Shown here piece by piece: positions 1 through 20,133 of a DNA stretch of 32,000 nucleotides. The notes under the pieces were generated by a model. It did not search any database. It worked only from the letters and a program-made list of their open reading frames with translations, and had not been told where the DNA came from. The stretch spans positions 150,001-182,000 of the forward strand of contig DIRZ01000001.1 in NCBI GenBank assembly GCA_002421785.1, written 5' to 3'. The translations under genes and the position numbers were made by a program. This DNA comes from Candidatus Saccharimonadota bacterium (GTDB lineage: Bacteria > Patescibacteriota > Saccharimonadia > Saccharimonadales > Saccharimonadaceae). Numbering within the stretch: position 1 is the first letter of the stretch; every line of letters starts with the position of its first letter.

Positions 1-52
1 AACCAGGGTAACAGTTATGCTTTAATAAGAATGTAAACGAATCAACAAAAAC

Positions 53-1327
53 ATGGCAAATCGCCCCCGCAGAAATAACCCAAATAGCTCTGGAAATAAC
101 GCACCAGTGCCAACGACTCCCGAACAGGGTCCACTTAGTGAGTACGACACAAAAATACTTGCTGCCCCTACGCCACTTGACCTCGCGCTTCTGCCTGGCA
201 GCGAAACAACATCATTTGCCGCGGAAGCAGCCTACAATGACGTACAGGCATCACTCGACACAACTGTGGATCTGTTGAAACAGCAATACCCCACTCCCGT
301 TGGCGATAAATACGTCAGTCCTGGAGGGCCTGGCATTGACATGCTCAACCTAATGGCGCTCATGGCCCATCGCAGACGTAACGAAAAAGGCAATTACACC
401 CCCGTGCAGGATCCGTCCGCCACGATGGCTCAGAATATTATTTGTGCCTATCCCAACCCCAAGCAGCTAATTGCAGATGTTTCCACGCACGCCAAAGCAA
501 TGCTCGAACGTAGCCGACACCAGGGCGATACATTTGACCCTGCGGGACTGCAAGAAAGCTTCGCGCGCCTCCTCCCTATTGTGTATGGGCCTCGCTACCA
601 AGAATACCGCGACCAGCACCGTGCAGAGCGTCACGCCACCGCAACCGTCGCCGCCGAACAAGCTGCCGTGGCTACACGCGAACAACAGGCACGGGACGAA
701 GAAGAGTCGCTAAAATACACAGGGCGCGAAATTCTTGCCAACTCAAAATCCGCTACCTTAAATCGCACCCAGCTTATCAATCAGTCGCTTATGTCATTAC
801 AGATGCGACAAGCCACCGCGCGCAATGCCCTTTCCACTCCTAAGCATGCGCTGCTTCAGTGGAACAAGAACCGCGCCGAAGCGAAGTACCTTCGCAAGCA
901 AGCCAAGGTGGGCTCCAGCATGTTCAAATTTATCAATAACCACCACGCCCGAGTCGCCACCAAAGCAAAGCGTACACTGGATGCGCGCAGTGGCGTCCTG
1001 AGCGCTCATCAAGCCTTGATAGATGGGCGGACGAGAACCGTGGAGGCGCAAGCAGCCGTTCGTGAGCGCGCCTACAAAGAAAAAATTAAGTTTTATAGCG
1101 AACAGAAGATTGCTGCAGAAGAATCGCGCATACAACGACGCGCCCTAAGACAGCGCGAACTACACGCGCGCAGCCAAGGCATGAACAAACACGAAAGCAA
1201 GCTATATGCCGCCAGGCTTACTCCCGAAGACAAACGACGCATCCGCCTTGTAGCAGTAACAGCCGCAAAACGTAATGCCATCCGGCAGGGCTATAACCCA
1301 GGAACAGACTATGACCGTGATAACTAA
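53..1327 (+). CDS. hypothetical protein; large Arg/Lys-rich predicted helical/coiled-coil protein (large partner, module copy 1)
   Basis: 424-aa ORF with ATG at 53. Low-complexity Pro/Asn-rich N-terminus, then long R/K/A/E/Q-rich stretches. No TM segment or signal peptide seen. Patchy similarity to the ORF at 1657-2973 (RRALRQRELHARSQGMNKHE...LTPEDKRRIRL vs RKSLRRELRSQGASWHE...IPQSERKRIGE). No family recognised. Confidence 0.7.
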   Translation: MANRPRRNNPNSSGNNAPVPTTPEQGPLSEYDTKILAAPTPLDLALLPGSETTSFAAEAAYNDVQASLDTTVDLLKQQYPTPVGDKYVSPGGPGIDMLNLMALMAHRRRNEKGNYTPVQDPSATMAQNIICAYPNPKQLIADVSTHAKAMLERSRHQGDTFDPAGLQESFARLLPIVYGPRYQEYRDQHRAERHATATVAAEQAAVATREQQARDEEESLKYTGREILANSKSATLNRTQLINQSLMSLQMRQATARNALSTPKHALLQWNKNRAEAKYLRKQAKVGSSMFKFINNHHARVATKAKRTLDARSGVLSAHQALIDGRTRTVEAQAAVRERAYKEKIKFYSEQKIAAEESRIQRRALRQRELHARSQGMNKHESKLYAARLTPEDKRRIRLVAVTAAKRNAIRQGYNPGTDYDRDN

Positions 1328-1607
1328 ACAACTCTTAGCCGATATCGGCATTTCGCTCGACGATTCCGCCTACGCGCAGTTTACCGAGCAATACGAAGCC
1401 GAGCTCGATAGCCGTATCGTCAATGAAATCGTCGATGAGCTAGATACCGAACAATTACGCGAACTAACAAGGTTCAAAGACAGCGGCGATGATGCAGAAC
1501 TACAACGATGGCTTGTCGAAAACGTCCCCGACCTCGATAAAATTGTAGAGGAAGAAATGGCAATTCTGCTGGGCGAGATTGCCGAAAACAGTGAATCATT
1601 TACCTAA
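1311..1607 (+). CDS. hypothetical small, highly acidic protein (small partner, module copy 1)
   Basis: Start re-called to ATG 1311 (MTVITKQLL...). An AGGAA SD lies 7 nt upstream, and the N-terminus aligns with the paralog at 2960 (MAILSKQLI...). By my count 26 D/E vs 7 K/R in 98 aa. Overlaps the upstream gene by 17 nt. Confidence 0.8.
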   Translation: MTVITKQLLADIGISLDDSAYAQFTEQYEAELDSRIVNEIVDELDTEQLRELTRFKDSGDDAELQRWLVENVPDLDKIVEEEMAILLGEIAENSESFT

Positions 1608-1656
1608 AGTCAATCCCTGCCCGTGACCCCACAAACACTAACCCAAAGGAGAACCC

Positions 1657-2973
1657 ATGTCAGAACGCGGCCCACGACACATCGTAACACAGGATGATGA
1701 GCCTATTCCGAATCCTGATACCAATCAGGATCAACTCCCTTTTGGTCCGCAGCCAGAAGCCGAACAATCAACTATCGTCGTACAACCACCGGAAGAATAT
1801 GCCGCACCGCCAGAGGCGACCGAACAACTCCTCACTCTAGAACAACAGCAAGATGCCGCTAACCGCTTTAACGACGCAGAACTACTCGGACGATCTTACC
1901 CCGTCAGGCGACTGGTTAAAACCATCGGAAACGAGCGTGTTCATGCGTGGGAATCCGCAAAAGCCGGTGTCGCTAACGCATGGGACACCCCTGGCAAGCT
2001 CATCCGCCAAGGCCTTCATGACCGCGCCAGTCGGAAAGTAGATGAAATAAACGCCAACCACAAAGCAGAACGTGAGGCAGCGCTCCAAGCCGGTGTATCA
2101 AATCGCCTCTTGCAGCATCGCCTGAGCCGCATCGACAAAAAATATAACCGAAAGAAAGCGAAATGGGGCAGCCGCCGCGACCGCCGCAAGCAATCACTGG
2201 ATACTCGTGTCAATCGAATGAACGCACGCACCGAATCGGTCAAGAGTAATCACGAAAAGCGACGCGCGGAAACCATCGCATTCTATAAGGCAAAGAAGGA
2301 AAAGGCACTTGCACGTAAATCCCTACGACGCGAACTGCGCTCTCAGGGAGCTTCATGGCATGAAACATTTGCCGTCATGAAAGACATCCCCCAGTCTGAG
2401 CGTAAGCGCATTGGCGAAGCGGCCCTTCGTGTCCATGCAAGTGAGCGGTCAGCTAGAAGCTCGGAGCGTTCAGCTAAGCAATCCGATCGTTATGCAAGCA
2501 GCGCCGAGAACTCGCTCCTAGCTAACTTCGCAAAGTCCGAGCGGCTCGCAAATCAAGCGAAAGAGGCCGATCAGACGATCGATGCAATAACAAGCGTTCA
2601 CCTACCTGAGGCGCGCGCTAGCCTTGACGCACTCCAAGAACAACTCGGTCAACTCCCTGAAGACAGCCCCGAGCGCAGTGATCTTCAGGTTAAAATACAA
2701 GAAACTGAAGACAAGATTAAGGTTTATGAAGAGCGCGAGCTCCCCTACTGGCACAGTGTTGCCAAAAAGTATCGCGAGCAAGTCAACACACTGCTCAGCG
2801 AACGTGCTAGCCTGCAGCAAATCTATCAGGGTCACCAAGAAACGGCTGCCCGTCACTCAGAGACCGCAGCGAACCAGCGCAGAGCTACTCAGGACTACGT
2901 CAATCAACGCAGAACCGAAACCAATACAGTACTAAACTCAGAAAAGGAACCAAGCACTCATGGCAATTCTTAG
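1657..2973 (+). CDS. hypothetical protein; large Arg/Lys-rich predicted coiled-coil protein (large partner, module copy 2)
   Basis: 438-aa ORF with AAAGGAGAA SD 5 nt before the ATG. Acidic/Pro/Gln-rich N-terminus, a very basic central region (KKYNRKKAKWGSRRDRRKQ...) and a heptad-like Q/E/R-rich C-terminus. Diverged paralog of 53-1327. Confidence 0.75.
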   Translation: MSERGPRHIVTQDDEPIPNPDTNQDQLPFGPQPEAEQSTIVVQPPEEYAAPPEATEQLLTLEQQQDAANRFNDAELLGRSYPVRRLVKTIGNERVHAWESAKAGVANAWDTPGKLIRQGLHDRASRKVDEINANHKAEREAALQAGVSNRLLQHRLSRIDKKYNRKKAKWGSRRDRRKQSLDTRVNRMNARTESVKSNHEKRRAETIAFYKAKKEKALARKSLRRELRSQGASWHETFAVMKDIPQSERKRIGEAALRVHASERSARSSERSAKQSDRYASSAENSLLANFAKSERLANQAKEADQTIDAITSVHLPEARASLDALQEQLGQLPEDSPERSDLQVKIQETEDKIKVYEERELPYWHSVAKKYREQVNTLLSERASLQQIYQGHQETAARHSETAANQRRATQDYVNQRRTETNTVLNSEKEPSTHGNS

Positions 2974-3250
2974 CAAACAACTTATCCAAGACCTCGGTAT
3001 TGAACTTAGCGAACAAGATTATGCATCACTTAGCGAGCACTTCGAAACCACTCTTCAGGAACGCGTCATCAACGAAATCACCATGGAACTGAGCCCAGAG
3101 CAAGCCCAAGAACTCGCAACCATGCAAAGCGCCAGCGATGAAGACTTGCTAGCATGGCTGCAAGCAAACGTTCCCGACCTTGCTGAAATCGTGTCCGATG
3201 AAGTCGACATTCTGCTCGGCGAGCTCGCAGAAAATAGCGAAGCAATTTAG
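2960..3250 (+). CDS. hypothetical small, highly acidic protein (small partner, module copy 2)
   Basis: 96 aa with AAAGGAA SD upstream. About half of its residues are identical to the 1311-1607 product over the full length (NVPDLAEIVSDEVDILLGELAENSE vs NVPDLDKIVEEEMAILLGEIAENSE). 22 D/E vs 2 K/R. Overlaps the upstream gene by 14 nt. Confidence 0.85.
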   Translation: MAILSKQLIQDLGIELSEQDYASLSEHFETTLQERVINEITMELSPEQAQELATMQSASDEDLLAWLQANVPDLAEIVSDEVDILLGELAENSEAI

Positions 3251-3264
3251 CGCCCACTCAACGT

Positions 3265-3293
3265 AAAAACCCGCTCATATGAGCGGGTTTTTT
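3265..3293. terminator. bidirectional rho-independent terminator
   Basis: Perfect palindrome AAAAACCCGCTCAT/ATGAGCGGGTTTTT(T), with A-run and T-run flanks. It lies between convergent genes ending at 3250 (+) and 3295 (-). Confidence 0.8.
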
Positions 3294-3294
3294 G

Positions 3295-3798
3295 CTACCA
3301 TCCACCGCGCCAACGGATGCGCTTCCATAACAATCCATCAAGTAATAGGTGGCTTAGGTACCCTACGACCGCCGCACCATAGTAAACGAGGCTAATCGGC
3401 AACATTTTTTCATCATACAAATACGGCACAAGTACAATCGGTAGCGGCACCAAAAATGCCGCCCATTTTGCATGAGTCCAGCCACGGTGGTGCGTCACGA
3501 TAGGCAGCATGGCAATCAACCCCAAGTATGCGGCAGCTTGCAGTTGACCACTCCAAATCAGCAGTACATCAAGCGGAAATACCGTCCAGAAGAATATGTC
3601 TTGCGCTTTACTATTTGTATCAACGTCGGGAAACAACGCGAAGAGCATGGCTATCACGAATACCGCTGCGAGCGGCTGCCAATCGCTAAGCAATGCTGCA
3701 TATTCCGCAAATTGCTCCACGGGGACAAACAGCATCAGCGCCGTATACCCCACCGCGCTGGCGAAGCCTCCGATTAAGTGCCCACGGTAGTTCGACAT
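3295..3798 (-). CDS. membrane-bound metal-dependent hydrolase, YdjM/DUF457-like
   Basis: 167 aa with multiple hydrophobic helices. Family-typical motifs: N-terminal RGHLIGG, HHRGWTH and C-terminal SHLLLDG. Confidence 0.65.
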   Translation of the reverse strand: MSNYRGHLIGGFASAVGYTALMLFVPVEQFAEYAALLSDWQPLAAVFVIAMLFALFPDVDTNSKAQDIFFWTVFPLDVLLIWSGQLQAAAYLGLIAMLPIVTHHRGWTHAKWAAFLVPLPIVLVPYLYDEKMLPISLVYYGAAVVGYLSHLLLDGLLWKRIRWRGGW

Positions 3799-3800
3799 GC

Positions 3801-5309
3801 TTATAGCTTCGCGTCTGGGTAGAGCGCCTTAGTCGTTTCGTCTATCTCATGACGCAACTGCGGAAATGGCACGCCTTCACGGGCAGTCACACCTTCAAAC
3901 ATCCAGAACACTCGCTCACTATGACCCCAGCCACAAGCAGGCGGCATGCCGTATTCCAGCATCTCCACAAAGTCGATGTCCAGCATCATAGCCTCATCAT
4001 CACCGCCATCACGCATGTTTTGCTGCTCCACAAAGCGGTCGTACTGGTCGATAGGGTCATTTAGCTCACTAAAGCCGTTGCCGAGCTCGCTGCCTAAAAT
4101 AATGGGCTGGAATCGCTGCGTGGTATGCGGATTGTCGACACTACTTTTGGCAAGCGGACTCACGAACTTTGGCGTGTTGATCAACCACACGGGGCCGACA
4201 ACGTCTTTACGGATATTCTTCCATAGCTTGTCGATACCACGTGGAACGCTATCAGTCTTCTCGACCTCCAGCTTGTGCTCTTTCAGCTTCGCGCTGACTT
4301 CTTCGATATTCGTGTTATAGACGTCGATGCCGTAGTGGTCTTTAATCACCGTGGCATAGTCCCAGACTTCCCACTGCTTACTCATATCTACTTCGAAGCC
4401 CCGCACGCTAAACTGGAGTGTTCCAAACGTTTCCTGCAGCACGTACGTGTACATTTCTTCCATGAATTTCATGCCATCCTGCCAATCGGCATAGGCCCAG
4501 TACCATTCCATAGCGACATGCTCCGGCAGGTGCTCGTCACTGTAGTTTTCGTTACGGAAACGAGGGCCGAGATCGTACACTTTTTCGAACCCAGCACCAA
4601 GCAAGCGCTTAAGCGGCAGCTCATGACTAATACGCAAGTAAAAGTCCTGATCGAGTGCATCCATATGAGTCACGAATGGATTTGCGTCTGCCCCACCGGT
4701 CGTGTGCTCGAGTACGGGAATATTAATTTCGTAGAACCCGTGATCATCTAGGAACTTGCGCGTGGCCTGCCAGAATTTGCTACGACGCACAAATCGCTCG
4801 CGAACGTCACGGTTGACGTTCATATCCACATAGCGGCGGCGGAAGCGCTCCTCTTTGCTGGTAAATCCTTCCTGGTCGGTTGGCATCGGTCGCAGGCTCT
4901 TGGTGAGTAGCCGCAACTCACGGACGTCCACACTTACCTCACCCGTTTTGGTGCGGATGACAGGTCCCGTCGCTTCCACAAAATCACCGGGGTCGAGCAG
5001 GTTGAGCTGCTCCATTCCAAGCCGCGATGTGGCAGCATCGAGTGACTCCACGGTGTCACTCTTCAAAAACAGCTGCACCTGCCCACTCATGTCACGCAGC
5101 ACGAGAAATGCGAGCTTCCCAAACTTTCGCGTACCCGTAAGGCGGCCAACAACCGTCACCGTCTGCCCCTCGAGCTCATCAAACTTCGACGTAATGTCCG
5201 CAATAGTATGCGTCCGTTTCGCCTCGGCGGGGTATGGGTTCACGCCCAAGCTTTTCAGCTCGTTAAGTTTTCGTATCCGTTCGTCGCGCAGTTCCTTGAG
5301 TGATGCCAT
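3801..5309 (-). CDS. lysS: lysine--tRNA ligase (class II)
   Basis: 502 aa. Has the N-terminal OB-fold anticodon-binding region and a class II core typical of LysS (RFRNE..., EHTTGGA, GWGHSERV-type C-terminal motif). Full-length similarity to bacterial LysS. Confidence 0.95.
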   Translation of the reverse strand: MASLKELRDERIRKLNELKSLGVNPYPAEAKRTHTIADITSKFDELEGQTVTVVGRLTGTRKFGKLAFLVLRDMSGQVQLFLKSDTVESLDAATSRLGMEQLNLLDPGDFVEATGPVIRTKTGEVSVDVRELRLLTKSLRPMPTDQEGFTSKEERFRRRYVDMNVNRDVRERFVRRSKFWQATRKFLDDHGFYEINIPVLEHTTGGADANPFVTHMDALDQDFYLRISHELPLKRLLGAGFEKVYDLGPRFRNENYSDEHLPEHVAMEWYWAYADWQDGMKFMEEMYTYVLQETFGTLQFSVRGFEVDMSKQWEVWDYATVIKDHYGIDVYNTNIEEVSAKLKEHKLEVEKTDSVPRGIDKLWKNIRKDVVGPVWLINTPKFVSPLAKSSVDNPHTTQRFQPIILGSELGNGFSELNDPIDQYDRFVEQQNMRDGGDDEAMMLDIDFVEMLEYGMPPACGWGHSERVFWMFEGVTAREGVPFPQLRHEIDETTKALYPDAKL

Positions 5310-5346
5310 ATTCTCTATAGTATATCAAACACTAAAGGAATATTCT

Positions 5347-7662
5347 CTACATGTAGCCGGTTCGGCTCGTCGAGAACGCAGCCTGACGACCCATTTCAAG
5401 CGCTAGTTTCTGTAATGCAGTCTTTGGCCCTTCGATGTATGGACTATGGAGCGGATTCGCACCATGGTCATTTCGAAATCCAAAGCGTTCTTTTATTTGC
5501 TTATCGCTAAAGTAGCCATCAGCCACTTTGTACTTCACGAGCGCCTGCTCACCCATAATCTCAATCTGTGGTGGAAGCCCTGCACCAACATGAAGCATCA
5601 CGATACTGTTGGCCGATCGAAGATTGCGTTCGTATTCGAAACCAGTCATGCCGTTTAGCGATCCTGCGCCAACATAGAGCTTATTTCCCCCAAGCATATA
5701 ATTCGCGTGGTGGTAATGGCCAAATAAACCTACGTCGACACCTTCGCGGAGTTCGCCAAGCCCTACCGATTGACGGTGTCCCGCAAAGGCTGGCGGTTGT
5801 CCGCCCGTGCCCTTCCCGGCTCCGAAGAAGTGACGAAGCTCAAAGCCCATCTCACCTACCTTAAATACAGTGGAGTAGGTCTTGACGGGCTCACCACGTG
5901 GCGTCACGATGGTGTCCTGGAACTGAACTCGAGCTCGCGCATCATCAAGCGAATATCCGCGTGCCATAAATGCTGCCTTATACGGATCGATAAACGGATC
6001 AGCAAACGAATATCCGTTTACCTTCATCGTACCGCTGTTCCATTCATGGTTACCGATCGTGACCTTTACAAAGAGGTTGTCGAGTTCTGCTTTCGTCATT
6101 TGCTCAAGTGAACGCTCAATCATATCTTTGACATACTCGATCTGCTGGTCCATTGCGCCAAGTCCCGTACGACCACTTTCGCGGTTAAAGTCGAAGTAAT
6201 TTCGTCCTTCGACCATGTCCCCACCAAGCGCAAGGTACACGGGGGCACGACCAAGGCGTCGCTTCACCAAATCAAGCTGCTTCAGCTGATAGTCTGGTCG
6301 AGAAGCCAAGTTCCCAGCTTGCCAATCACACTGCAACATCACCGTTGTGCGCTCTGGTATACTTTCAGATACTTCCCAGAGGTGCTTATTAAACAGAGTG
6401 ACGACCTGAGTACCATCATTCCTGCGTTCAATCGCCGTTGCGCTTGGGTCGTGGAATCGCCCGCGTCCAAAGATTGGGCGCGCCACAGTATTAGCGGTAG
6501 ATGTAAGAATATCACCATCTTCAAGTAGGGCTTTATTGGGGTTCTGCAGTCCACCAATGGAGTGAATAGCCTTATTGTCCGGTCGCAAAACGCCGCCTGC
6601 TTCTTGTTGGCCAGTTATGATGATATTGTCATAACGATCAACGCCTTCTGCGGCAAGCGTTCCGCGAACTTGCGCGGGCGTCCTAAAGTAATTAGCAAGC
6701 TGCGCATTGGAAGTCTGCATTTTATGACGGACGAGATCTGTATATTCATTTTCGCCACGCGTCGTCACGACATGTTCAAAGTCGCCAACGATAGTCAGTC
6801 CATTGCCATCTTTCAAAGCCGTGCGGTCAAGCACCTGTAAGTGCTTTGGCAGTAGTCGCTGGCCCTGAGATGCGCGCCGGTAGGCGTCAAAGAGTATCTC
6901 ACGTTCAGGCTCATTGTATTCCCCATCGGTCGCTGCAGCAATCGCATCCGCATCGCGCAATTCATGTCCGGTTCGTACGCAGTACGGAAATGCAACGTAT
7001 TTAGTAAAACGATAATACTCTGGCCAGTTGGGGTGCGCCTTTGCCTTTTCAAGACCCGAAAGCTGTCGCTTCATATCGATATCTTCAGACTCTTTCGCGT
7101 GCTTCCGCGCAAGTACGTCCATCTGATGAAATGCATCGTATGTCATCTCTTCGATAATGTCGGTGTCGTTATCGCTTCGCGCGTAAACGACCGGGATACC
7201 AAGATTACGTAGTTGATCGAGTTTCTCTTTTCCCGCTCTGAACTGATCCTCGAGTGTCCGAAGCCCAGGCTTCAGCATCCATTTCGAGTTCTTCTTGCGT
7301 CCACCAAAGTCCCCCATATACAGCCCACTCATGACAATTTCATCAGGCTTCATATCTTGAGGAAGGGCACCGACACGTTCAACAACCTGGTTAAAGAAAG
7401 TGTGGTCGCTATACTTACTCCCGACAAGTAGCTCTGAGAGATAAAGAGTATTCTGCGAATTCGCATTTCCTCGTCGCCGCTCGACCGTACGCATGCCGTC
7501 AACGTTCGCATCATCATCCATTATTTCGTCATAGGTCTTGCCAGTAAAATCTACCTTATCGGTCAGGTAGCCAAATGCTTTAACAGCTCTTGGATCAAGT
7601 CCGCCCTTATCCATTGAATCATCTTCTTGTGTTTGCGCTTTGCGTGACAGACCTTCGGCCAT
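5347..7662 (-). CDS. large metallophosphoesterase-domain protein (C-terminal calcineurin-like phosphoesterase; N-terminal ~450 aa uncharacterised)
   Basis: The ORF-track start at 7713 is TTG. ATG at 7662 (MAEGLS...) is preceded by AGGGGA. MPE motifs lie in the C-terminal third: GGDMVEGRN (about 6199-6225), GNHEWN (6037-6054) and GHYHH (5707-5721). The exact start is uncertain. Confidence 0.75.
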   Translation of the reverse strand: MAEGLSRKAQTQEDDSMDKGGLDPRAVKAFGYLTDKVDFTGKTYDEIMDDDANVDGMRTVERRRGNANSQNTLYLSELLVGSKYSDHTFFNQVVERVGALPQDMKPDEIVMSGLYMGDFGGRKKNSKWMLKPGLRTLEDQFRAGKEKLDQLRNLGIPVVYARSDNDTDIIEEMTYDAFHQMDVLARKHAKESEDIDMKRQLSGLEKAKAHPNWPEYYRFTKYVAFPYCVRTGHELRDADAIAAATDGEYNEPEREILFDAYRRASQGQRLLPKHLQVLDRTALKDGNGLTIVGDFEHVVTTRGENEYTDLVRHKMQTSNAQLANYFRTPAQVRGTLAAEGVDRYDNIIITGQQEAGGVLRPDNKAIHSIGGLQNPNKALLEDGDILTSTANTVARPIFGRGRFHDPSATAIERRNDGTQVVTLFNKHLWEVSESIPERTTVMLQCDWQAGNLASRPDYQLKQLDLVKRRLGRAPVYLALGGDMVEGRNYFDFNRESGRTGLGAMDQQIEYVKDMIERSLEQMTKAELDNLFVKVTIGNHEWNSGTMKVNGYSFADPFIDPYKAAFMARGYSLDDARARVQFQDTIVTPRGEPVKTYSTVFKVGEMGFELRHFFGAGKGTGGQPPAFAGHRQSVGLGELREGVDVGLFGHYHHANYMLGGNKLYVGAGSLNGMTGFEYERNLRSANSIVMLHVGAGLPPQIEIMGEQALVKYKVADGYFSDKQIKERFGFRNDHGANPLHSPYIEGPKTALQKLALEMGRQAAFSTSRTGYM

Positions 7663-7799
7663 TGCATCCCCTATAGTTAAAAGACATGTCATGCTACCAC
7701 CCGACACATCCAATGTTATTACTGTTCAGTGCACCTCCAGCACTTCTTCAGTTCTTATAGTACCATTCCGCCATGCCGATACCTAGCGTGTCGCTTATG

Positions 7800-19353: not shown

Positions 19354-20133
19354 TTACAATGCGTCTGTGCCATTAATAATCGCGAACACATAGGTCGCAA
19401 CCATAATACCTATCGTCAGCAGAATGGGCATAATGACATCGGAACGGCGCACAGCGCCATGTTTGTGATAACTTGCGTATGCGCGCTCTGCGATAAAGCT
19501 ATAGAGCGTTATGAATAACGCAAGCTGTGAGAACTGAATAAGCTGGAACCCGGGAATAGGATAAGCCATCAAGTAGTGGAAGCCAATCCAGCCCATTTCA
19601 GCAAAAATTGCGCCCGAAACCAAGCTGTAAATATGCGTGTGGGGCTCTTCATAGCTCCCCAGCACATGACGAGTTGAAACAAACCCAATCACCCACATGG
19701 CCAGAACAAATAGGAAGGCGTCCCACGAAAATGAGACCATAGATAGCGCCGTAATTCCCAGAAAAATCGCACATCCAGCCTGCACAGCAACGTATGAACG
19801 CCGTGAACGCGGCTTAATGAAGAGCAGCCAAACGATATAAAGTAATGTAATGGCAAACTGCAGCCACTGCGCACCTGATGCGCCGCAAAGGAGTACCACA
19901 ATGCTGACGCCGACGATAATGTCGACCATATTCGCTACCAGGTTAGCGAACCAGAAACGTGGACGAACCGCCAGGGCGCGCCACTTACTCATCAGCACCA
20001 CGGCAAATGCTAGCCATGGAGACTGCACTGCTAACACGATAACAAGAAGCGTCACCGCCAGTCCGACATTCAGAGCAATATAAGCTGACTCGCTTAGTCG
20101 TGTTCGTCGTTTGTGTGCTTTCAACAAATCCAT
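19354..20133 (-). CDS. hypothetical polytopic membrane protein
   Basis: 259 aa with about 7-8 hydrophobic helices. No motif recognised. Lies between the LCP gene and htrA. Confidence 0.7.
   Translation of the reverse strand: MDLLKAHKRRTRLSESAYIALNVGLAVTLLVIVLAVQSPWLAFAVVLMSKWRALAVRPRFWFANLVANMVDIIVGVSIVVLLCGASGAQWLQFAITLLYIVWLLFIKPRSRRSYVAVQAGCAIFLGITALSMVSFSWDAFLFVLAMWVIGFVSTRHVLGSYEEPHTHIYSLVSGAIFAEMGWIGFHYLMAYPIPGFQLIQFSQLALFITLYSFIAERAYASYHKHGAVRRSDVIMPILLTIGIMVATYVFAIINGTDAL

Follow-up and report, generated by a model that had tools for sequence, protein, structure and literature searches.

In systems of the VirE1–VirE2 type, described from Agrobacterium, a small acidic helical protein is co-translated with a larger basic or coiled-coil partner encoded next to it and keeps it from aggregating or from binding nucleic acid prematurely; this pair, along with the DMP12/HI1450–HU pairings, provides what we take to be the analogies for a small protein that mimics nucleic acid. 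A small acidic helical protein encoded beside a coiled-coil protein is also the classic layout of a secretion chaperone. Here, we describe a four-gene unit, A-S1-B-S2, which lies at the start of a 32,000-nucleotide (nt) stretch of DNA from a Candidatus Saccharimonadota bacterium (assembly GCA_002421785.1, contig DIRZ01000001.1, positions 150,001 to 182,000; hereafter the window). The unit encodes two large basic proteins, A and B, each of which is followed by a small, strongly acidic protein, S1 and S2, respectively.

The small proteins lead to DUF5663, one of many core Patescibacteria families without an assigned function; in the literature searched, no paper names it in the text. In Southlakia epibionticum, three DUF5663 genes are all flagged both as a core family and as enriched in Patescibacteria (Wang et al., 2023; PMC10633639 Tables S1 and S2), whereas their partners are not flagged as core families (PMC10633639 Table S1). 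The constant pairing of a DUF5663 protein with a charged helical protein encoded upstream was likewise not found in the literature searched and is the observation added here. The firm new result is that DUF5663 follows a protein with a charged helical module throughout Saccharibacteria, and it is accompanied by a domain map of that partner. An orphan DUF becomes a defined two-component system, and the unannotated large partner receives its first family definition.

By analogy, the pair resembles VirE1–VirE2 in its apparent working logic only, with neither sequence nor fold similarity between the two systems. Moreover, VirE1 precedes VirE2, whereas the small gene follows the large one here, and no secretion system is found nearby. 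DNA-mimic proteins (DMP12, HI1450 and Ocr) bind a DNA-binding protein and display surface carboxylates in an array that imitates the phosphate backbone; for a comparison with them, S1 and S2 offer only their net charges of −19 and −20 and a monomer model.

The small acidic proteins as members of DUF5663

S1 and S2 align end to end with 46 of 97 residues identical (47%, E 2e-29). Both are extremely acidic: S1 carries 26 Asp/Glu against 7 Lys/Arg (net charge −19, isoelectric point (pI) 4.05) and S2 carries 22 against 2 (net charge −20, pI 4.05). These counts are exactly those of the initial annotation of the window, which had also put the identity at about one half and had supposed that the small protein might belong to an uncharacterised DUF family. 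That family is DUF5663 (PF18908) in Pfam. S1 matches its profile with 27.9 bits (E 3.6e-6), above the gathering score of 23.7, and S2, at 47% identity to S1, reaches 23.0 bits, 0.7 bit under that score. On these profile matches, S1 and S2 are members of a family that is catalogued but uncharacterised. At the family level, DUF5663 was the only assignment obtained.

S1 and S2 share the single-domain, acidic, all-alpha form of about 100 amino acids (aa) seen in this family, for which precomputed PF18908 matches are available in 38 of 38 homologues found; 15 of 15 aligned members also match PF18908. At E ≤ 1e-3, the DUF5663 profile identified 728 clusters in a search of 1.84 billion representative proteins. 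Among the 150 listed, almost every one is a stand-alone protein of 93–110 aa, and in stand-alone members of about 100 aa the domain spans nearly the whole protein. Exceptions are rare and comprise a tandem pair (P0189), a protein with a charged N-terminal extension (P0166) and a TIR domain joined to two copies of DUF5663 (P0143). Two alignments of the family contain 23–25 invariant columns, including the C-terminal motif WL..NVPDL..IV..E..ILLGE.AE.S. The invariant residues are mostly hydrophobic and do not form an array of conserved acidic residues.

An AlphaFold2 model of S1 confidently predicts a single five-helix unit (predicted local distance difference test (pLDDT) 82; predicted template-modelling score 0.64). 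When this model was compared with the PDB and with viral models using Foldseek, no significant match was obtained, and the DUF5663 profile found no credible match, and thus no solved relative by sequence, among PDB sequences. The top PDB matches of the model are Sus1-type helical proteins that wrap a partner helix (4mbe_C and 4wa6_B). These proteins have about 96 aa and helix lengths similar to those of S1, yet the matches, the best of which is to Sus1, are not significant (E 4.6 and 5.8; template-modelling (TM) scores 0.45 and 0.34), and the modelled likeness does no more than suggest one way in which a long helix could be clasped by a small helical protein. Among the DUF5663 proteins P0031–P0038, weak matches recur to PspAB (PF22742; residues 10/26–80 onto profile positions 31/48–102) and to Sdh5/SdhE (residues 39–77 onto profile positions 25–63). 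Both sets of matches are far below threshold and may reflect acidic-helical composition or a very remote similarity.

A constant upstream partner in Saccharibacteria

Hidden Markov models (HMMs) were built for type A, for type B, for a module shared by the two and for the small protein, and were run on all open reading frames (ORFs) of the fetched loci. Co-occurrence of the two gene types as neighbours in related genomes had been set beforehand as a test of the pairing proposed in the initial annotation, and it was observed for 77 of 77 small genes. Each DUF5663 gene has a same-strand upstream ORF of at least 120 aa that ends −20 to +105 nt from its start; in 75 of the 77, the small gene starts no more than 43 nt from the upstream stop. 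True overlap with the upstream ORF is a minority state (16 of 77). Across 73 non-redundant pairs from the related loci and the window, the upstream ORF is 134–571 aa long. About 60 of these ORFs match the type-A, type-B or shared-module HMM, and the others, of 270–537 aa, are similarly charged (Lys plus Arg 14–29%) and too diverged for the HMMs.

Throughout these pairs, the net charge of the small protein is always −14 to −31, while the most basic 160-aa window of its partner averages +21. The subtype of the small protein also follows that of its partner: S1-like proteins are found after partners with a C-terminal module in 6 of 6 cases, and S2-like proteins after B-type partners in about 50 of 50. 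By far the commonest arrangement, which includes Nanosynbacter, is B-S alone, the minimal unit. The arrangement A-B-S occurs in several lineages, and the doubled A-S1-B-S2 only in the lineage of the window, in loci L005/L006 and in L007. In addition, a natural fusion is known from P0166, in which a charged N-terminal stretch is joined to DUF5663.

Named homologues derive from Candidatus Saccharibacteria (TM7)/Patescibacteria, including the oral Nanosynbacter, and 66 of 67 genome loci are labelled Saccharibacteria/Patescibacteria or with a generic "bacterium". The A-S1-B-S2 unit contains a two-gene operon module, characteristic of Saccharibacteria, in two paralogous copies. One locus, L063 (JBLMYW010000026.1), comes from a metagenome-assembled genome labelled Acidobacteriota. 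The B-S pair on this contig, which is probably a binning contaminant, is typical of Saccharibacteria (type B, E 1.3e-89).

Two unusual DUF5663 proteins were also inspected in their surroundings. P0189 (L076:5001-5549), the tandem DUF5663 protein of 182 aa, has no same-strand upstream partner; therefore, the pairing rule fails outside Saccharibacteria. The neighbours from which it diverges are a gene of 56 aa, an M10-like peptidase gene and one for a 713-aa protein, on a contig that also has murD and Rv3785-like genes. P0143 (L075:6001-7920), a protein of 639 aa from an unrelated organism, starts with a TIR domain, after which come two DUF5663 repeats, and is flanked by a 1375-aa DUF4062-TPR protein and by a second TIR protein, and the locus thus resembles a conflict or defence system.

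Architecture of the large partners

A (pI 9.95, net charge +21) and B (pI 9.47, net charge +10) are similar to each other in a single block of about 145 aa, with 32% identity (E 2e-6). The patches quoted in the initial annotation, which had stated that the large proteins share only patches, lie inside this block. Both proteins contain a basic helical module, about 180 aa long, with a net charge of +23 to +29; residues 241–400 of A carry +23, and residues 81–280 of B carry +29. In type A, the module is C-terminal, with a tail of about 20 aa, and is preceded by about 200 additional N-terminal residues; in A itself, the N-terminus is rich in Pro and Asn. In type B, an acidic Pro/Gln-rich N-terminus, variable in length and sequence between lineages, is followed by the module and then by a further coiled-coil region, in B a hairpin of about 170 aa. 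A conserved region of the large proteins reads LRRELR..GAS..E...IP....KRIG. Judged from the sequences, the paralogy of the two pairs is old and does not reflect a recent tandem duplication, the architectures of A and B being different; the earlier description of the pairs as tandemly duplicated thus overstated the similarity of A and B.

A further homologue search with a 28-sequence profile, in which low-complexity words filled the candidate list, added a single sequence, so that the alignment used to model B had 13 rows. For B, AlphaFold2 predicts that residues 1–56 are disordered and that helices 83–144, 149–229, 246–332 and 338–427 form two long antiparallel hairpins (pLDDT 82), the first of which, H83–144/H149–229, lies within the shared module. 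In about 50 loci, B-type proteins have 167–178 residues after the module in most cases (full range 167–315). Because this length is kept despite identities of only about 20–30%, the second coiled-coil hairpin seems to be length-constrained. No transmembrane or signal-like segment is present in A, S1, B or S2, for all of which the maximal Kyte–Doolittle mean over 19 residues is below 0.9; this absence had been proposed for the large proteins. On the basis of these predictions, the large protein would be cytoplasmic, entirely alpha-helical and highly charged, with a length of about 430 aa, and its basic module is modelled in B as a helical hairpin.

Neither A nor B matches a family in Pfam, NCBIfam, PADLOC or PHROGs, and A has no match in the PDB by sequence. 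Among the PDB matches listed, the B-type profile hit nothing but coiled coils, namely those of tropomyosin, P22 gp26, keratin and designed proteins, all with its C-terminal half, and the listed Foldseek matches of the B model are generic long-helix proteins, with no significant PDB match. We regard these profile and Foldseek matches as compositional. Such generic coiled-coil similarity is all that lies behind the earlier term "filament-forming", which is not supported. A Pfam scan of 28 B-type and 30 other partners yielded one FHA domain, one LysM domain and scattered sub-threshold coiled-coil matches. Profiles of cytoskeletal and division proteins of the DivIVA, EzrA and ZapA/B types gave sub-threshold matches only, e.g., to a ZapG-like profile in 1 of 28 (E 0.037). 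The FHA domain is found in the N-terminal variable region of the L020 partner (4556-5992; Pfam E 4.6e-7), and an FHA-like "STNGT" segment can be discerned by eye in the L057 partner (4285-6000). These features hint at phosphothreonine-dependent regulation of this protein family.

The long helical hairpins predicted for B resemble the architecture of PspA, Vipp1 and ESCRT-III proteins, and like these could belong to a membrane-remodelling polymer in which the basic hairpin binds the membrane and the small protein acts as a PspAB-like accessory. A short helix precedes the predicted hairpins of B, and the weak PspAB (PF22742) matches are in the same register in 6 of 15 DUF5663 proteins. However, the latter matches reach 12–16 bits (best 16.3) against a gathering score of 27, and PspA_IM30 or Snf7 was matched neither in the 28 B-type partners (E ≤ 0.1) nor in the 30 others (E ≤ 0.05). 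In addition, no PspA, Vipp1 or CHMP chain occurs among the 60 of 68 PDB profile matches or the 50 of 625 Foldseek matches listed. The PspAB system includes a membrane-associated metallopeptidase (Ravi et al., 2024; PMC11237479), whereas no gene of this kind adjoins the pair here. The idea, which had been prompted by the weak PspAB matches, was rejected at the sequence level, and we regard it as very unlikely.

The composition of the module raises another option, in which it binds DNA or RNA in the manner of a nucleoid-associated or RNA-scaffolding protein and the acidic DUF5663 protein titrates the large protein as a mimic or anti-factor. Lys and Arg make up as many as 15 of 40 residues in the module and 14–29% of the whole protein in divergent relatives, and the charge of the small partner is approximately equal and opposite. 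The proteins have a cytoplasmic look, with no transmembrane segment, and their genes are located among translation and transcription genes. Nevertheless, gene neighbourhood counts for little as evidence where a genome is streamlined, most invariant positions of the small protein hold hydrophobic residues, and a known nucleic-acid-binding domain was absent from the approximately 58 large proteins scanned. We therefore consider this version improbable.

A possible charge-complementary complex and its alternatives

What is established comprises the order and coupling of the genes, their conservation, charge pattern and phyletic range, the predicted folds and the family membership; beyond this, we infer a co-expressed, charge-complementary complex in which DUF5663 binds the basic module as a charge-neutralising partner. 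This reading, the likeliest of those considered, which extends to physical interaction, 1:1 stoichiometry, the binding site and a role as chaperone or regulator, is tentative, and we hold it to be possible though somewhat short of probable. In such a complex, the large and small proteins would be made from one transcript in near-stoichiometric amounts, and the DUF5663 protein would bind the large protein encoded directly before it, by way of the basic module, neutralising its charge as a dedicated partner. Neutralisation would keep an elongated, sticky scaffold soluble, and DUF5663 could control the timing of scaffold self-association or of binding to a polyanion, such as nucleic acid or an acidic membrane. 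The complex is supported by the neighbourhood in 77 of 77 cases, the opposite charges, the cognate subtypes, the overlaps with separate ribosome-binding signals for the small genes and the single terminator. The predicted folds, the ratios of nonsynonymous to synonymous substitution rates (dN/dS) well below 1 and the P0166 fusion argue in the same direction. The initial annotation had already proposed a charge-complementary complex; its opposite charges now hold family-wide and the subtype is seen to track the partner, while the complex itself keeps the tentative standing given above.

Several observations weigh against the proposed complex. The whole-protein charge of the partners ranges from −14 to +41, and 3 of 73 partners are without a strongly basic window. 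Type A is not followed by a dedicated small gene in A-B-S genomes. The small protein is also markedly more conserved than its partner, with a mean pairwise identity of 0.56 vs. 0.27. Furthermore, a second DUF5663 class of 138–156 aa follows an acidic protein of 544–594 aa; hence, charge neutralisation is not a general DUF5663 rule. Finally, the genes SEML1_0221 to SEML1_0223 of Southlakia, discussed below, are all non-essential (NE) at T0–T2 in co-culture transposon sequencing (Tn-seq) (PMC10633639 Table S1).

SEML1_0221 belongs to a same-strand cluster next to serS, where it is preceded by two unannotated genes (247 and 110 aa) and encodes a DUF5663 protein of 101 aa (PMC10633639); serS also adjoins the pair module in L001 and L004. 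Southlakia epibionticum and Nanosynbacter lyticus are naturally competent (PMC10633639). By annotation and synteny only, SEML1_0221–0223 likely corresponds to the A-S1-B-S2 locus, and its upstream genes are shorter than A and B. SEML1_0221 itself received 12–15 transposon insertions and was called NE at T0–T2 (PMC10633639 Table S1). A second Southlakia locus, located after infB, comprises SEML1_0161 (767 aa) as well as SEML1_0162 and SEML1_0163 (142 and 144 aa, both DUF5663) (PMC10633639). Here, the Tn-seq calls were growth defect (GD)/essential (ES)/ES for both SEML1_0161 and SEML1_0162 and NE/GD/GD for SEML1_0163 (PMC10633639). The second locus type among the related loci, i.e., the acidic 544–594-aa protein with the longer DUF5663 protein, corresponds to SEML1_0161–0163. 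It was found at L060:1565-3811, L061:1117-3259, L068:944-3097 (minus strand) and L074:3858-5429, and its small proteins have a repeated C-terminal motif. By eye, the LysM match noted above (1 of 30 scanned partners) is probably to the acidic protein of this second locus type.

That the small protein is about twice as conserved as its partner would be surprising if binding a fast-evolving protein were its sole task, and it argues for a further conserved target. In this alternative, DUF5663 would be an adaptor or hub: as the conserved functional unit, it would engage some conserved machinery of the cell, and the variable large protein would recruit or position it as a scaffold or regulator, with a disordered N-terminus as a regulated and possibly phospho-dependent handle. 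The difference in identity (0.56 vs. 0.27) fits this arrangement, as do the 23–25 invariant DUF5663 columns with their C-terminal motif, and the FHA domain inserted in the N-terminus of the L020 partner is a phosphopeptide-binding domain. In Southlakia, DUF5663 is core and Patescibacteria-enriched and its partners are not core (PMC10633639 Table S1). The fusion of DUF5663 repeats to TIR elsewhere would suit an interaction module. An adaptor would explain the higher conservation of the small protein, the occurrence of DUF5663 after acidic partners and the TIR fusion. However, no candidate for a third partner was found, the neighbours are ordinary, lineage-variable housekeeping genes, and binding to the large protein is still compatible with an adaptor, which partly overlaps with the proposed complex. 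On balance, we rate an adaptor as unlikely, although it is the main competitor of the proposed complex.

An extension of the proposed complex concerns the nature of the scaffold. DUF5663 proteins might be dedicated assembly partners of a previously unrecognised, fast-evolving helical-hairpin scaffold family, specific to Patescibacteria, with which they would form a lineage-specific cytoskeletal or envelope-organising polymer; we offer this as a long shot. Such a polymer would help ultrasmall epibionts to divide or to organise the cell, disordered or FHA-containing tails would place it under kinase-dependent control, and the essential SEML1_0161/0162 locus would be a second instance. If it exists, a lineage-specific scaffold or cytoskeletal system would bear on the organisation and division of ultrasmall epibionts; a pair that serves only as soluble storage or as a chaperone would be of local interest.

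The initial annotation had also allowed for a toxin–antitoxin logic. Such a module, in which the large protein would be toxic and the acidic protein its antidote, was considered together with other defence modules. The pairs do consist of two translationally coupled genes for proteins of opposite charge, and the TIR-DUF5663-repeat protein belongs to a conflict-system-like locus in an unrelated organism. Toxin–antitoxin and defence functions were nonetheless rejected based on distribution, absent domains and Tn-seq. The module has a fixed housekeeping position and occurs throughout Saccharibacteria, being neither patchy nor mobile; no toxin or antitoxin domain was matched in PADLOC, PHROGs or Pfam, and no DNA-binding antitoxin domain was found. 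Likewise, the likely orthologue SEML1_0221 tolerates insertions (PMC10633639 Table S1), whereas the antitoxin gene of a type II module cannot be inactivated while its toxin is intact. A toxic large protein is accordingly the least credible option, and we judge it extremely unlikely.

Layout and genomic setting of the locus

The four genes are on the same strand (Table 1). Their coordinates, as given in the initial annotation, were confirmed by the ORF list and by independent public gene calls: identical genes of 424, 98, 438 and 96 aa are annotated in the 100%-identical contig L082 (ENA ERZ27315056) and in three relatives. Its claims of overlaps (17 nt for A/S1 and 14 nt for B/S2), of a separate Shine–Dalgarno (SD) sequence for each small gene and of a strong bidirectional terminator after S2 were likewise borne out.

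Table 1. Coordinates of the A-S1-B-S2 unit and its adjoining features in the window.
Feature	Positions	Strand	Basis
Upstream intergenic/leader region (part) of the four-gene unit	1-52	+	Sequence; related contigs
Gene A, 424 aa	53-1327	+	ORF list; public gene calls agree
Shared basic helical module of A, residues 217-404	701-1264	+	Module HMM, charge profile, BLASTP block
SD-like AGGAA, inside the end of gene A, 6 nt 5' of the S1 ATG	1300-1304	+	Sequence
Gene S1, 98 aa, DUF5663, A-linked subtype, predicted five-helix	1311-1607	+	Pfam, charge, AlphaFold2
SD AAGGAGA of gene B, in the 49-nt S1-B spacer	1646-1652	+	Sequence
Gene B, 438 aa, widespread partner type	1657-2973	+	ORF list; no Pfam/NCBIfam family
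B residues 1-56, acidic Pro/Gln-rich, predicted disordered N-terminus	1657-1824	+	AlphaFold2 pLDDT < 50
Shared basic module of B, residues 66-260	1852-2436	+	Module HMM, charge, AlphaFold2
Second predicted antiparallel coiled-coil hairpin, B residues 246-427, B-type-specific	2392-2937	+	AlphaFold2, relatives
SD-like AAGGAA, inside the end of gene B, 10 nt 5' of the S2 ATG	2944-2949	+	Sequence
Gene S2, 96 aa, DUF5663, B-linked subtype	2960-3250	+	Pfam, similarity to S1
Bidirectional intrinsic-terminator hairpin AAAAACCCGCUC-AUAU-GAGCGGGUUUUU	3265-3292	.	Folding
Convergent ydjM-like gene, beyond the terminator	3295-3798	-	ORF list, Pfam

The terminator hairpin, situated between S2 and the convergent ydjM-like gene, has a GC-rich stem of 12 bp with an A5 run on its 5' side and a U6 run on its 3' side, and a centroid energy of −18.6 kcal/mol. 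For a 53-nt stretch around it, the minimum free energy was −20.7 (z −5.4), and 0 of 200 shuffles were as stable. A simple terminator scanner did not flag this hairpin, which folding confirmed.

All four genes are under purifying selection, with dN/dS values of 0–0.34, mostly ≤ 0.12, in comparisons with close relatives. The dN of the large genes is several-fold above that of the neighbouring lysS and ydjM-like genes. At L083, the B gene (3345-4643) has only 60–77% nt identity to window positions 1657-2973 (dS 3.3), while the flanking A, S1, S2 and ydjM-like genes have 82–100% (dS 0.03–0.67). From these alignments, the B gene of L083 looks like a localised allelic replacement with borders in the S1-B spacer and at the start of S2.

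The remainder of the window consists of housekeeping genes, including lysS, greA, proS, pyrH, a CPBP protease gene, rseP, uppS, frr, tsf and rpsB, followed by prfA, prmC, htrA, a gene for an LCP protein, lepB, parB, parA, ileS and ftsZ. Among 25 window ORFs scanned against Pfam, 23 match only housekeeping-type families and none is a secretion-system gene; Rfam and tRNA scans of the window detected no RNA genes. Recurring neighbours of the pair include lysS, greA, proS, serS and a MacB-type ABC transporter, and in related contigs a divergent MacB/FtsX-type ABC transporter operon lies about 90 nt upstream of A. Beyond the pair, the neighbours vary between lineages and are ordinary housekeeping genes.

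This setting bears on a further alternative, in which the coiled-coil protein is an effector exported to the surface or to a host and the acidic protein is its cytoplasmic secretion chaperone, as in the substrate–chaperone pairs of T3SS and T4SS. An acidic helical protein adjacent to a coiled-coil protein is present, although this layout is not specific to chaperone pairs. The fast evolution of the large genes and the apparent allelic replacement of B at L083 would also suit an effector, and weak coiled-coil-level matches to the translocators IpaB/SipB were seen, which are sub-threshold and compositional. On the other hand, signal peptides and transmembrane segments are absent, as are secretion-system genes in the 32-kb window, and the pair lies among housekeeping genes, with neighbours that are found repeatedly across the class. 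In Southlakia, the likely orthologue is dispensable in host co-culture, whereas the type IV pilus genes are for the most part class I essential (PMC10633639). An exported effector is quite improbable.

Two ORFs of the window stand apart from its annotated genes. No Pfam match at E ≤ 0.001 was obtained for the 259-aa ORF at 19354-20133 (minus strand), which is flanked by the htrA-like gene and the LCP-family gene. The ORF at 5347-7713 (minus strand), which adjoins lysS and encodes 788 aa, has no Pfam or NCBIfam match; related loci have a large unannotated gene (783 aa in L001) at the equivalent position, and metallophosphoesterase-like motifs (GDMVEGRNY, GNHEW and GHYHH) can be recognised by eye in the C-terminal half of its product.

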